Counted from the stretch's first letter, positions 47,099 to 53,897 are shown. The stretch is 64,000 nucleotides of DNA from an uncultured Bacilli bacterium (GCA_949841325.1 CATKZK010000001.1:4733-68732); one strand, 5' to 3'. Numbers and translations: made by a program. Notes: generated by a model not told the origin, from the letters alone.

Positions 47099-47221
47099 TT
47101 TACTGTAGAAGAACGATAGTTCTTCTTTTTTGTGATAAAAAGCGCATTTTATATTCCACTATTTTCTATTGAAAAATACCTTCTGATTTGCTATGATAAG
47201 ACCTAAATGTGAGGGATTAAA

Positions 47222-48319
47222 ATGGAATATTACAAGATGGATGAAGTGGAACTGCGAATAAGACGTATAAAGAATTTAAAAAGCATTCATGCCTTCTTTC
47301 TTCAAAATCAAGAAAAATTTGTTCTTTCTGTAACAACAGAAACAGATAATATCATTGTTGATAATCATCATCCTCATTTTATGCTTTTTCTCACCTCTCT
47401 TGCCAATGCTTATTTTGATGAATGTGATACACGTAGAATTTTAGTGCTTAATCCTGATGTTATTAGTCTCTTAAAAGAAAATAAACAAAATCAAATAACA
47501 AGATCATCTTTTATACCTGTTGAAAAAATAGAGTATCAAAGTAATGAACTTCGTTTTTTCACTACCTTTATTTATGAAGCTTTAGCAGTTGTCTTTGGAT
47601 GTAATGGAGTAGAAATTACTCGTTTTAGCCCGATGAAAGGTATGCGTACTTTCTTTCATATGTTTGCAGAAACAAAGGGCAATACGTATATCTTACCTAT
47701 AAAGTATAGTAAAAAAAGTGAAAATAAAATTGTCCTTGAGATTGGCAATGTTGTAGGAACCTCTCTTCATTTGGAAATTCGTTATTCTCCTTCAGGTGTA
47801 CGTATTTATTTCCATGGAGGATCTATTCCTTTAGTAGGTACCATTATATATGAACTAGACCAGGAACCTACTCATGAAGTAGAAGTGATGTATGAAAATC
47901 AAATGAGTTTTTATAATCGTGAGAGTCTAGTAGGCGAAGAAATGAATGGGAAAATGGCTTACTCGCTTTCTCCAGAATTTACGATACTTTATCAGGAAGA
48001 AGAAAGTACAAAGGATACTGAATATCGATTGGAAACAGAAGAATTTAAAAAGTGTGTTCATTTAAAAGAAAAGTGGCGTTTCATTGGAGAAATAAAGTGT
48101 CCTGTCTACACCGATTACGAAGGCTATGAAGAATATAAAATAGGTAATAATTTTTCTCTTGTTCAAAAATATAATATCGATAATCAATATAGTATTGACG
48201 ATATTCATTTGATCTTAAAAGAGGGGGAAAAAGAGATTATTCCTCCTAAAGGCATGACAGAAGAGCTAAAGAGTTTAGATGAACGAGTTATTCGTTTACG
48301 ATTAGAAAGGAAAGAGTAA
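47222..48319 (+). CDS. hypothetical protein
   Basis: 365-aa ORF; translationally coupled to the next gene (3-nt gap). Confidence 0.45.
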   Translation: MEYYKMDEVELRIRRIKNLKSIHAFFLQNQEKFVLSVTTETDNIIVDNHHPHFMLFLTSLANAYFDECDTRRILVLNPDVISLLKENKQNQITRSSFIPVEKIEYQSNELRFFTTFIYEALAVVFGCNGVEITRFSPMKGMRTFFHMFAETKGNTYILPIKYSKKSENKIVLEIGNVVGTSLHLEIRYSPSGVRIYFHGGSIPLVGTIIYELDQEPTHEVEVMYENQMSFYNRESLVGEEMNGKMAYSLSPEFTILYQEEESTKDTEYRLETEEFKKCVHLKEKWRFIGEIKCPVYTDYEGYEEYKIGNNFSLVQKYNIDNQYSIDDIHLILKEGEKEIIPPKGMTEELKSLDERVIRLRLERKE

Positions 48320-48321
48320 CA

Positions 48322-50454
48322 GTGGCAAATAAATTTAAAATTCCATTTCTTAATAAAAAAGAAGAGAGTGAAGAAAAGCAAACATTTAGCAATGCTTTTG
48401 AATCTCTATACGCACTAGCAGAAACTAAAAGAGCAACATCCATTATGGAACATATGAATAGAATAAAAGGGCATTCTGAAAATTGTTATTTTGAAAGTGA
48501 AGAAGCTTACTTAGAATTTGTAGAAACTGTTTTAAATAATCCTGTTTTGATAACAAAAGATTTTAAAACTCTTTACGAAGAAGGAGAAGGTATTTATCGC
48601 AGTTTAAAAGAACATAAGAAACTATTTAAGCACTTTTATCAAACCAAAGGACTTTATGAAAATGGTGCTGTTTTAAAAGAATGCCTTTCATTATTTGAAG
48701 ATCCTACCAATTATATGGCAATTATGGAAGCCCTTCTCTACAAAGGGTATCCTTTTAAAGATCGAAAGACTTTAATCGAGTTATTTACCAATATAGCTAT
48801 CTATACAGTAGGCGATAATGATTACTGTGCCGCCTTACTTTACTTTGCTAACCATGCGGAGATGAAGGGAGACTATCAAAAGACAGCAGATGAAATTATC
48901 GGAATTGCAAAGAAAAAGATTGGTTTATATGATGAATTAGATGAAAAAACACTTGCTAAATGGCAAACAATCATCAAAGAGGCTGCTAAACCAATTGTTG
49001 ATTTAGAAAAATCCCGCAAAGAAATTGCCTCTTTAATGCAAGATCTTGCAAGCTATAAAACGGAAGCACAAATTGTTGATAAAACAATTAATGAAAAATT
49101 AAATCAATTTGAAGATTATGTTGATCATTCTATTTTAAAACATCAAGAAGAAATGAAAGCTGCTTATGTCGAACTTGTAGCTAAACTTCGTAATGTTTCG
49201 TTCACTTTAGAGGGAGAACTTAGTCGTTCGGCGGAAAGAAAAGCTTTAGATATTGCCAATCGAACACTTGAGAAAATGCAAAATGAGGCGCATGAACTTT
49301 CCTCTGTTTCAACTAATGTAAAATCTTCTATGCAAGATCTTGAGAAATTAAAAGCAGAACTGGAAACAAAATTAGAAGAAGGTTTAAAATCTATTGAAAA
49401 GTCCTTGTTAGGTTCAGAAAATGTTGATTTTAGTAAAATAAAAGAGCTTATTTCAACGAATTCTAATGAAGGTAAAACAACGGAAAAAATTATTCTTCCA
49501 AGTGCGCCTATCACTTTCCAAGGAGAGATATTTGCCAAAGAAGAAACGGAAGTGCCAAAAGTTTTGCCTTGCTTTGATCCAACAATCCCTTTTAAAGAAA
49601 GATACCAACAATTGATGAAGATAAAGAAAAAGCAGCAAGAAAAAGGCATTATTTATAATGAACGTTTAGAAGATTGCCTTTATGCCATTCTAGCCAATAG
49701 AACCATTTATCTTTATGGACCGACAGGAGCTGGGAAATCGACTTTAATTAAACAACTTGAAGATTTCTTTCCTGTTCCGTTTATTCCTGTTGATTATATC
49801 GATGATAAGTTTGAAGTGAGCGGAGGAAATACGGCTAATGGAGGATATTCTCGTTCAAAAATATATGATTGTTATCGTCTAGGGTATATTGCTTATTATG
49901 ATGAAATAGATAACGGTTCCGCTAAATCTACGATTAAACTTCATCCTTTTATGGATGGATTAAGAGATTCGTATTCATTTCCTGTTGTTGGAAAAGTAAA
50001 TCGTCACCCAAATTTTCGCGTTATTGTTGCGGGTAACACTTCTGGTATGGGAGCAACAAGCGCCTATAATACGCGTGCCAAATTGGATGAAGGTACTATC
50101 CGTCGAGTTGAATATATTCCCATTGATTACGATACGAAATATGAAAAATTCATTTTAAAAGAATATCCAGAATGGTTTGCTTTTGTCATGTTATATCGCA
50201 AAGCAGTTAAGAACTATTGGATCGAACAAGATGATCAAATTCGTGGGCAAATATCAACAGCACATGTATCACATTTAGCCTTTGATTTAAGTCAAAATAT
50301 TCGCAGTGAAGAGAAAATTTTAGAAAGAATGTTTGTTGAGCCAAAATCTGATGATTATCTAAATTTCATTACTAAGTATATGGAAAATCACAATGATGAA
50401 AAAGCAAAAAAATTAGTAAAAGAGTTTGCCTCTTTAGTAGAGAAGCGATCATGA
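48322..50454 (+). CDS. coiled-coil protein with C-terminal AAA_5 / MoxR-type ATPase domain
   Basis: Walker A YLYGPTGAGKSTL, Walker B AYYDEID, sensor FRVIVAGNTSG; ~450-aa helical/coiled-coil N-terminal region. Confidence 0.65.
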   Translation: MANKFKIPFLNKKEESEEKQTFSNAFESLYALAETKRATSIMEHMNRIKGHSENCYFESEEAYLEFVETVLNNPVLITKDFKTLYEEGEGIYRSLKEHKKLFKHFYQTKGLYENGAVLKECLSLFEDPTNYMAIMEALLYKGYPFKDRKTLIELFTNIAIYTVGDNDYCAALLYFANHAEMKGDYQKTADEIIGIAKKKIGLYDELDEKTLAKWQTIIKEAAKPIVDLEKSRKEIASLMQDLASYKTEAQIVDKTINEKLNQFEDYVDHSILKHQEEMKAAYVELVAKLRNVSFTLEGELSRSAERKALDIANRTLEKMQNEAHELSSVSTNVKSSMQDLEKLKAELETKLEEGLKSIEKSLLGSENVDFSKIKELISTNSNEGKTTEKIILPSAPITFQGEIFAKEETEVPKVLPCFDPTIPFKERYQQLMKIKKKQQEKGIIYNERLEDCLYAILANRTIYLYGPTGAGKSTLIKQLEDFFPVPFIPVDYIDDKFEVSGGNTANGGYSRSKIYDCYRLGYIAYYDEIDNGSAKSTIKLHPFMDGLRDSYSFPVVGKVNRHPNFRVIVAGNTSGMGATSAYNTRAKLDEGTIRRVEYIPIDYDTKYEKFILKEYPEWFAFVMLYRKAVKNYWIEQDDQIRGQISTAHVSHLAFDLSQNIRSEEKILERMFVEPKSDDYLNFITKYMENHNDEKAKKLVKEFASLVEKRS

Positions 50455-51431
50455 GAGATTATCTAAACATTTATGAAGATAAAGAAGGCTATCGCCATTT
50501 TGACTATTATTTTCCTTCACTATCTTCCTTTGTAAAATATACAAGAGAAGCCCCAATTAATGAAAAGATTTTTACGCGTTTTAAAAGAGCTTCAGAGAGT
50601 ACTTTGCTTGCTTATGGGGCTGACACCTTAGAAGAAACTTTTGATCATCTAATCAGTGGATATCACAATCAATATCCTGAATATCGGAGGATTAGCCAAA
50701 TAAAAAACATCTCTTTTTATCGTCCTATAGAAGAGATAAATGAAACAACGGTTCTAAGTTATGATGGTGGATATGTTGATATAAATGCTTATTTAGCAGG
50801 AGAGGCAAAATGTATGCGTAAGACAGTTTATCAAGAAACAAGGAGCTTTATCAATTTTTATATTCAATTGCTTTTTTCGTCCGATGTAACAGAAAAGGAA
50901 AATATTCATCGCGGAATTATTGCTTTAGAAATTATTAGAGCATTAGAACAATCGGGAGTTTCTGTAAATATTATAGGAATTGCAGGATTGGTTACTCAAA
51001 ATGATAATTACAGAGAAGAAATGATGCTTAAGATTAATTTAAAATCGTCTAATATGCCATTTAATGAGTCAAAATGTATTGGACCTTTAACTCGTATTGA
51101 ATTTCCAAGGAGAGCTATAATGCGACTTGTCGAGACAACTCCATTTGACTTTAGTTTAGCTGACGATTTGAGATTAACATATGGAAGAGCGAAAGAATTT
51201 GATGATTTAAAACCAATTCTTCCTTTGAAACAAGGAGATATCTATTTAGGAAATCCTCGTTATCTAGGAATAAGACCAGGATATACAATTGAGAAAAAAG
51301 AGCGTTTTAAAAAGTCAAGTGAAGCCAAGCGATATATAATTCGTGGAGAAGACATCTATAAAGATTTTGAAACTACTTTAGAATGCCTCCAATTGGAGAA
51401 TGTAATAAAGTTAAAAAAAAGATTGAAATAA
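50451..51431 (+). CDS. hypothetical protein
   Basis: 326-aa ORF overlapping the previous stop by 4 nt. Confidence 0.45.
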   Translation: MRDYLNIYEDKEGYRHFDYYFPSLSSFVKYTREAPINEKIFTRFKRASESTLLAYGADTLEETFDHLISGYHNQYPEYRRISQIKNISFYRPIEEINETTVLSYDGGYVDINAYLAGEAKCMRKTVYQETRSFINFYIQLLFSSDVTEKENIHRGIIALEIIRALEQSGVSVNIIGIAGLVTQNDNYREEMMLKINLKSSNMPFNESKCIGPLTRIEFPRRAIMRLVETTPFDFSLADDLRLTYGRAKEFDDLKPILPLKQGDIYLGNPRYLGIRPGYTIEKKERFKKSSEAKRYIIRGEDIYKDFETTLECLQLENVIKLKKRLK

Positions 51432-51476
51432 AGAAAAAATAAGGTATAATAAATTCTTAAGAAAGAGGGCCTATAC

Positions 51477-52649
51477 ATGACAGATATTGAAATAAAGCCA
51501 CCAGTATTACAAAAACAAGAAACAGAAGTTACGATAACTGCTCCTGTATTTAGTGAAGAAGATGAAAAGGAAATCACAGAATTAGCAAGTCTTATTGATT
51601 TTAATGACAGTACATCTGTTTTAGAATATGGTGTTGATTTTATGCAAACTTTTGGAAAATTTTCTAATGAGGCATTAAAGAAACATCGTTCAAAAGACTT
51701 GGGAGATATTGAAAAGGAACTTTTAGAGTTTTCAACTTCATTAGTCGTAAATGAAGAGGAAGACTTATCGAAAAATATCATTATTCGTCTCTTTCAAAAG
51801 GGGAAACAAAAAGGGAAAGAGTCGGCTACAAAAGTTGCATTGTCACAAATTTCTATAGAAAAGCTTCTAAATCAAGCAAGCGAAAAATTCTTAGATAAAA
51901 AAGAATGGCTCCTTTCTAGTATTAGTGGGATTGATACTTTTTATGAGTATAATCTTCAATATCACAATATGATAGAAAAATATACCGAAGCAGCGAAAAG
52001 AGAGTTAGAAAAAGGAAGAAGAGAATTACCAACTATGGTTGAGAATGCAAAAATATCTGGTGACCAAATGGAAGTGCAGAGAGTGCGAGACTTTGCTGAG
52101 AGAATGAACGATTTAGAACAAAAAGTGATTAACTTTAATTCATTAAAAGTACTTTCGGAAACACTTTCATATGAGTTACGAATTGAGCAAAAGGCATTTA
52201 AAGATGTGGCTGGGGGTATTAACGAAATTATTACAACTAGTATTCCTCATTGGAAATTATATCTTCAAATGCAACTTGTGGCAGAAGAAGGAAAAGAAGC
52301 AGCAAGAATTTTAAAAGGTGCTCAAGAGTTGACGCAAACACTTGCTAAAAAGAATGCTGACACGATTCACGATTTATATATTGATGCAGTTGATATGAAA
52401 GGAAAGCCAACTTTTGAACATGAGACAGTAGAATATGTTATAGAGCGATTACAAGATGCTATTCAATATGAAATTGAAAAGACTAGAATTCGATTGGCAG
52501 ACTTAAGAGAAGGAGAGTCAAGATTAGAAACTAAGTATGAAGAATTTCAAAATGTATTGATAAACTATTCAGATGAAATGGGAAAAACGACAATTGACAG
52601 TGCTTTAGATGGCGAAAAAAAATATAAATTACCAACAAAAAAAGTGTAA
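51477..52649 (+). CDS. TelA-like (toxic anion resistance / YaaN family) coiled-coil protein
   Basis: size (390 aa), N-terminal region (DFNDSTSVLEYGVDFMQTFGKFSNEAL) and all-helical character resemble the TelA/KlaA family; assignment from memory, not verified. Confidence 0.45.
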   Translation: MTDIEIKPPVLQKQETEVTITAPVFSEEDEKEITELASLIDFNDSTSVLEYGVDFMQTFGKFSNEALKKHRSKDLGDIEKELLEFSTSLVVNEEEDLSKNIIIRLFQKGKQKGKESATKVALSQISIEKLLNQASEKFLDKKEWLLSSISGIDTFYEYNLQYHNMIEKYTEAAKRELEKGRRELPTMVENAKISGDQMEVQRVRDFAERMNDLEQKVINFNSLKVLSETLSYELRIEQKAFKDVAGGINEIITTSIPHWKLYLQMQLVAEEGKEAARILKGAQELTQTLAKKNADTIHDLYIDAVDMKGKPTFEHETVEYVIERLQDAIQYEIEKTRIRLADLREGESRLETKYEEFQNVLINYSDEMGKTTIDSALDGEKKYKLPTKKV

Positions 52650-52703
52650 AGAATATTCTGCACTTTTTTTGTGTGGTATAATGTAAAAAAGGATTGATGA
52701 ATA

Positions 52704-53897
52704 ATGGAATTGAATTTTGACGAACAAGAGATGTTAAAATATTTCCTTTTAAGATGTATCCCCGATTTTTATGATGAAAAATATGCAATGAGTTTCTTAA
52801 AATTTGCTTTTAAAGAAGAAGACTTTGAAAAGATTATGCTTTATTTAACGAAGTTAAAAGAAGAACGTAAAGCGATATTTCTAAATTTGAAAACAGAGGT
52901 TTCCAATCGTACCATTATGGTATCTGAATTTGACCAGATATATGATTTTATCCAAGAGTTACAAAAAGAGGCAGAGACACCGCGTGATGAAGATATCTAT
53001 ATTTTCATTCCAGATTATCATAAATTTTTTTCTCTTCTGCACAAGATGATGATGGCGTTTGATACCAAGTCGCGAAATTACGAATTTAATGCAGCAGACT
53101 TATTACATAGTGTGTGGCTTCGGATGGGATCAAAGGATATAGAAGATGTCTTTTCCTTTTTAAGAAAACAAATTGCTTTTATTAAAAATGATGATAAGCT
53201 AAGTTTTGAAGATACTTTCATTGGAAAAATGGGAGAACTTGAAGTGTCTTGTGAAAATGCTGCAAATGACAATTTCTTTGAAACAAATCGTCATTTAGCA
53301 ATACGCTTAAATGTTTCTTCATTATATAGTTGGTATAGTCTTCCTGTTATTCACTATGGATTCGCGATGGAAGATGAGCCTACTTGTTATATTTATGGTC
53401 TACAATCATTAGATAAATATCATTGTGATCAGAGAGTAGGCGAGTACATAAAGCCATATAAGCGAAAACTTCGAAATAAATATGTTTCAGCTGATTTTAT
53501 TTTAGCTTTAAAAATCGCGATTGATTTTTTGCGAAAGAAGGGCTTTACGCGTATTAAAGTTCCGCTGTTACAAGTTTACAATTATGCCTATCATCAAAAC
53601 TTAGGAGCGCTTACAAAAAAAAGAATGGACGCTTATTCTCCTGAAATGGTAGAACGTATAGAAAATATGGAAGTATCAGAATATATTATAGAAAAATATG
53701 AACGTGATAAAGAACAGTATAATAGATTCTTCCATAAAGAAGATCTCATCAGTGAAAATAAAACAGAAAGACTCTTGCAAATATTTTCTTGTGTAGCTCT
53801 ATTTTATGGTGATATTGAACTAATAAGTGACCCTTTTATAGAAGATGATATCCTTATCTATAGAGTTAAGCAAAAAGAAGTGGATAAAACGTTATAG
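52704..53897 (+). CDS. hypothetical protein
   Basis: 397-aa ORF. Confidence 0.45.
   Translation: MELNFDEQEMLKYFLLRCIPDFYDEKYAMSFLKFAFKEEDFEKIMLYLTKLKEERKAIFLNLKTEVSNRTIMVSEFDQIYDFIQELQKEAETPRDEDIYIFIPDYHKFFSLLHKMMMAFDTKSRNYEFNAADLLHSVWLRMGSKDIEDVFSFLRKQIAFIKNDDKLSFEDTFIGKMGELEVSCENAANDNFFETNRHLAIRLNVSSLYSWYSLPVIHYGFAMEDEPTCYIYGLQSLDKYHCDQRVGEYIKPYKRKLRNKYVSADFILALKIAIDFLRKKGFTRIKVPLLQVYNYAYHQNLGALTKKRMDAYSPEMVERIENMEVSEYIIEKYERDKEQYNRFFHKEDLISENKTERLLQIFSCVALFYGDIELISDPFIEDDILIYRVKQKEVDKTL

Follow-up and report, generated by a model that had tools for sequence, protein, structure and literature searches.

Among the closest described relatives of the locus reported here are pairs of a MoxR-type ATPase and a vWA protein. 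Midasin, CobS, CbbQ, and NorQ all work with a vWA/MIDAS partner, as a general principle (PMC7159879), and the paradigm of motor, adaptor, and third subunit is given by the CobS ring, the CobT shaft, and CobN (bioRxiv 10.64898/2026.07.21.739949). The vWA–MoxR ternary conflict systems (Kaur, Burroughs, Iyer & Aravind 2020, PMC7159879) combine a MoxR and vWA core with a variable third protein; a subset of them also lacks the MIDAS aspartates, and the text describing them does not mention TelA. TelA itself belongs to the Ter systems, where, according to one proposal (PMC7824862), it builds structures beneath the membrane together with a vWA protein. In Listeria, mutation of telA is described as raising the sensitivity to both nisin and tellurite (Collins 2010, cited in PMC12791056).

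Elements of all three are brought together in a block of genes at 47222-53897 of the window, by which we mean the whole 64,000-nt stretch of DNA analyzed. Five ORFs on the same strand were confirmed there, and the two parts of the second are listed separately:

47222-48319, + strand, g1, ORF of 365 aa
48322-50454, + strand, g2, ORF of 710 aa with a GTG start
48322..49638, + strand, N-terminal arm of g2 (residues 1 to ~439), consisting of a helical domain and then a long coiled coil (~205-400)
49639..50454, + strand, g2 C-terminal MoxR/AAA_5 module, with invariant motifs and profile matches
50451-51431, + strand, g3, ORF of 326 aa, DUF7192
51477-52649, + strand, g4, ORF of 390 aa, TelA/YaaN family
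52704-53897, + strand, g5, ORF of 397 aa, orphan

The tight spacing given in a preliminary description of this DNA needs a single correction: g2 and g3 do overlap by 4 nt (the start of g3 over the stop of g2), and 45 nt and 54 nt do separate g3 from g4 and g4 from g5, but the gap between g1 and g2 is 2 nt, not 3 nt. That the five ORFs are real genes is upheld, since all are intact in a sister species (approximate dN/dS 0.05-0.30) and g1–g4 are conserved together.

The block is a real, widely conserved, and uncharacterized four-gene cassette of gut Firmicutes, plus the lineage-specific g5. Among 80 species-level genomes sampled for conservation (Lachnospiraceae, Ruminococcus, Oscillospiraceae, and Bacilli MAGs), g1, g2, and g3 are adjacent, on the same strand, and in the same order at every evaluable locus; g1 is present in 74 of the 74 loci with enough sequence, and g3 lies 3' of g2 in 78 of 78. 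A homologue of TelA (g4) occurs in 61 of the 80 loci; in 57 of them it is adjacent (53 times at position +2, 4 times at -2). Beyond g1–g4 no other family recurs near the cassette in more than 12 of the 80. Junctions between cassette genes are mostly -4, -1, +1, or +3 nt, and g1–g3 are usually translationally coupled. This co-conservation bears out the earlier proposal of a functional unit and goes against the refuting condition set with it, a lack of co-conservation in relatives, although the unit has four conserved genes rather than five, g5 being limited to this species and one sister species. The label of uncharacterized is likewise apt, with no real match in PADLOC or NCBIfam and no paper in the literature mentioning DUF7192.

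The motor of the cassette, g2, belongs to the MoxR clade. The motifs first noticed in it are all present, namely GPTGAGKST at residues 466-474, YYDEID with D527/E528, and AGNT with N572/T573, so that Walker A spans 466-473, Walker B is D527-E528, and sensor-1 is N572-T573. Across 61 homologues there is little or no variation at G466, G471, K472, E528, N572, T573, or R595, and D527 is nearly invariant; R595, which precedes strand 5, is probably the arginine finger. The window protein itself scores 20.4 bits against AAA_5 (PF07728), just under the Pfam cut-off of 22, and 55 of the 61 full-length family members match this model (best 2e-13). Its nearest relatives of solved structure, by the family profile against the PDB, are midasin (5e-15), CobS (1e-6), CbbQ (2e-6), and CbbQ/NirQ/NorQ (4e-6). 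Over the arm, the profile finds only helical-repeat and coiled-coil chains (for example, apolipoproteins and designed bundles); the arm is 66-68% identical to that of the sister species, as compared to 90% for the AAA part.

A MoxR ATPase had rightly been expected to need a partner, and the proposed one is encoded directly 3' of g2, inside the block. This is g3, one of three proteins previously left unassigned; it now has a family, PF23822 DUF7192 (54.8 bits, cut-off 27, with residues 18-248 aligned to positions 13-241 of the 281 in the profile), and its homologues in R. albus and E. ruminantium are named 'DUF7192 family protein' by NCBI, while g1 and g5 are still without an informative match. 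The structure model of g3 has a vWA-like core (~130-270), of α/β Rossmann-like vWA fold, behind an N-terminal domain, and its top matches are MIDAS and vWA domains from MoxR–vWA systems. The MIDAS motif, DxSxS following strand 1 and an Asp following strand 4, is lacking: among 51 homologues, N takes the first position in 31, and Q, K, and T take it in 4 each (Q in the window protein), the following positions are A/S/T and S/P/Y, and strand 4 is followed by G/D/S/N, then S and an invariant P, with no conserved Asp. Of the Pfam models, none from the VWA family matched g3, only DUF7192, and the g3 family profile retrieved nothing from the PDB, even with E allowed to reach 10. The model thus points to a divergent vWA-fold protein without a MIDAS site, which we propose, by analogy, to be the adaptor of the ATPase.

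The same site bears on whether the block encodes a cobalt or magnesium chelatase (CobST-like) for tetrapyrrole biosynthesis. Phage homologues are often annotated 'CobS / porphyrin biosynthesis', and the family profile matches CobS in the PDB; yet such a function is hardly credible, given that g3 lacks the MIDAS site, that midasin scores far above CobS, that the block and its vicinity contain neither a CobN/ChlH-like large subunit nor a cobalamin gene, and that TelA and g1 would have no rationale. A CobS–CobT–CobN cobaltochelatase was considered as a specific candidate and rejected, MIDAS being absent from g3 and a CobN-like gene from the locus.

The motor–adaptor pair (g2–g3) is common to the cassette and many phages. 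Phages of Staphylococcus (Kayvirus), Listeria (Pecentumvirus), and Mycobacterium (cluster L) repeatedly carry a short AAA_5 gene with a DUF7192 gene behind it, with both families homologous to those of the cassette and with order and orientation alike, and the two genes are adjacent in 47 of 80 viral contigs from IMG/VR. The phage ATPases are short and, unlike g2, have no N-terminal arm: the 80 viral relatives (166-501 aa) match only from query residue ~381, mostly ~430-700. In archaeal viruses, a MoxR–vWA pair serves tail assembly. The cassette might accordingly be read as a prophage remnant, or as a phage gene set for phage replication or virion assembly, which would suit both the frequency of AAA_5 and DUF7192 pairs in tailed phages and the PHROG matches (phrog_249 with g2 at 1e-22, phrog_5890 with g4, and phrog_1909). 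We regard this as very improbable, however, because neither this locus nor any of the 80 has other phage genes flanking the cassette, none of the 80 viral contigs has a long g2, g1, or an adjacent TelA, and the cassette is inherited vertically beside rplI-dnaB.

The remaining proteins differ in how much can be said of them. A soluble 365-aa protein restricted to this cassette, g1 has a confident structure model that predicts an N-terminal α/β domain (~8-127), an antiparallel β-meander of ~20 strands (132-339), and C-terminal helices. The model found no informative structural match; the best are porin-like sheets, not propellers, and give no functional clue. Against Pfam, g1 and 54 homologues have no consistent match, only isolated ones by one or two members at E 5e-4 or weaker. 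We propose g1 as a client or sensor. The recognition of g4 as a TelA/YaaN-like, all-helical protein is confirmed by a full-length match to PF05816 (1.1e-35; 123.8 bits, cut-off 30; residues 34-361 aligned to positions 2-330 of the 332 in the profile), and all 10 sampled cassette homologues match TelA in Pfam, 8 above the cut-off. For g5, there is no family or PDB match, and its sole homologue is in the sister species (L007, 62-63% identity); it was not found in the 80 loci, in the nearest other relatives (L092-L094), or in a metagenome scan, and hhalign linked it neither to g1 nor to the genes of 582-591 aa found in its place at other loci. The operon has gained g5 as a lineage-specific addition, outside the conserved cassette.

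The TelA family is linked to tolerance of envelope-damaging agents. We give an even chance to the view that the cassette encodes an ATP-driven protein-remodeling machine of MoxR–vWA type, working on a structure that contains g1 and TelA at the membrane under envelope damage. In such a machine, g2, whose ATPase motifs are intact and which carries the long coiled-coil arm, would form an AAA+ ring, and g3 would dock on the ring and hold the client, by analogy with CobS–CobT, NorQ–NorD, CbbQ–CbbO, and midasin. The co-inherited g1 and TelA would be the clients or partners, and the machine would assemble, activate, or recycle the structure containing them at the inner face of the membrane, triggered by envelope damage from antimicrobials or possibly from phage. 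Since about a quarter of the loci lack TelA, it cannot be the sole client; and since no TM segment is predicted in any of the five proteins, the membrane enters this scheme solely through what is known of TelA.

Rates were estimated by comparison with the sister species, at a dS above 1 for the cassette genes, near saturation, so the dN/dS ratios are approximate. In this comparison g1 (dN/dS 0.18), the g2 arm (0.18), TelA (0.30), and g5 (0.19) evolve 3-9 times faster than the motor (AAA module, 0.05), the adaptor (g3, 0.075), and the flanks (0.03-0.06, except DUF3267 at 0.10); g4, 54% identical to its counterpart, is the fastest-evolving gene of the block. With dS at ~1.1-1.4 in cassette genes and 0.7-1.5 in flanking genes, the cassette has co-diverged with its flanks, and its GC content does not differ from that of the surroundings; it is therefore not a recent insertion here. 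The earlier picture of an inserted accessory module fits only on the wider scale, as cassette sites in different genera are unrelated genomic places. The flanks differ even between two R. albus strains, and the distribution is patchy, covering at least 93 of 185,579 species genomes.

A dedicated anti-phage (conflict) system like the MoxR–vWA ternary systems is a reading that we consider unlikely but a serious contender. In it, some phage product would be sensed by a diversifying g1, which the motor–adaptor pair would switch on; the part of effector or exclusion barrier, acting on the membrane, would fall to TelA or, here, to g5. Fast-evolving peripheral parts around a conserved motor, a conserved N-terminus and variable β-domain among g1 homologues, the patchiness, the differing sites across genera and flanks between R. 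albus strains, and a motor–adaptor pair common to phages would all be in character. Moreover, TelA is part of Ter systems proposed as antiviral (PMC7824862), and MoxR–vWA sensing pathways have been experimentally tied to epibiont defense (bioRxiv 10.64898/2026.09.08.750141). Against such a system, the suggested PADLOC check on the five proteins came back without a real match (PADLOC-DB v2.0.0): g1, g3, g4, and g5 had no hits, and those of g2 do not extend beyond the P-loop (LeoBC 4e-10, 35 residues) or the coiled coil. No effector domain (nuclease, TIR, protease, or pore-former) is recognizable in g1–g5, every dN/dS is below 1, and here the cassette is inherited vertically with its flanks. The idea of a defense island was not sustained either, as 139 immediate neighbors are mostly housekeeping or regulatory genes with only about 4 strong PADLOC matches, and no integrase or transposase is among the 25 most frequent flank Pfam families. 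A role in phage defense is thus possible, but genomic context gives it no support.

The cassette shares features with each group of known systems. With the MoxR–vWA pairs (CobS–CobT, NorQ–NorD, CbbQ–CbbO, RavA–ViaA, and midasin) the cassette has in common the ATPase clade and an obligatory, translationally coupled downstream gene with a modeled vWA-like fold, and its third co-encoded protein could be the client; unlike them, g3 lacks both MIDAS aspartates and any Pfam VWA match, g2 carries the ~440-residue helical/coiled-coil arm, and the two are accompanied by an orphan β-sheet protein and by TelA, not by a metal-centre enzyme. As in the ternary conflict systems, a MoxR and vWA core stands beside a variable third protein, and the bpMoxR model is weakly matched by one g2 relative and by the JoeDirt phage ATPase. 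The cassette nevertheless lacks the components of the VMAP, FtsH, and β-propeller types (the g1 fold being a β-meander, not a propeller) as well as effector or effector-associated domains, and its hosts are gut and rumen Firmicutes, whereas the ternary systems are found mainly in multicellular actinobacteria and cyanobacteria. A bona fide TelA is held in common with the Ter systems and with the TelA(YaaN)–XpaC operon of Firmicutes; Ter systems likewise pair TelA with a vWA protein (TerF/TerY), but the vWA of the cassette is from a different family and coupled to an AAA+ motor. No TerB, TerC, TerD, TerZ, or XpaC gene is in the block or among the called neighbors, and no PRTase or HAD gene is in the block.

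Alternatively, the cassette may be an assembly chaperone for an unrelated complex encoded outside the block, as are RavA–ViaA, CoxD–CoxE, and NorQ–NorD, with g1 and TelA as accessories. This is the usual job of most studied MoxR–vWA pairs (PMC7159879), and housekeeping genes as neighbors, together with what appears to be a sigma-70-type promoter of its own, would agree with it. We nonetheless think it quite unlikely: no client gene is conserved nearby (none beyond g1–g4 in more than 12 of 80 loci), a housekeeping assembly factor would not usually be so patchy or have three fast-evolving components, and a metal-centre role is disfavored because g3 has no MIDAS site. The predicted signals are as follows:

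47107..47126, + strand, terminator-like hairpin with an 8-bp stem followed by a T-run, a consensus match only
47169..47197, + strand, promoter-like site (TTGAAA, 17-nt spacer, TATGAT, TG upstream), 25 nt 5' of g1
51423..51450, + strand, promoter-like site (TTGAAA, 16-nt spacer, TATAAT), running from the 3' end of g3 into the g3–g4 gap

The hairpin lies 3' of the aminotransferase-GNAT gene, between this upstream gene and the cassette. The first promoter-like site (10 of 12 consensus matches, with an extended -10) is suggestive of a putative sigma-70-type cassette promoter, in a region where such sites are no more numerous than in shuffled sequence; no regulator or stress-responsive element was found for the cassette. 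The second, a consensus match only but the best in the region (11 of 12), is a candidate internal promoter that might serve g4 and g5.

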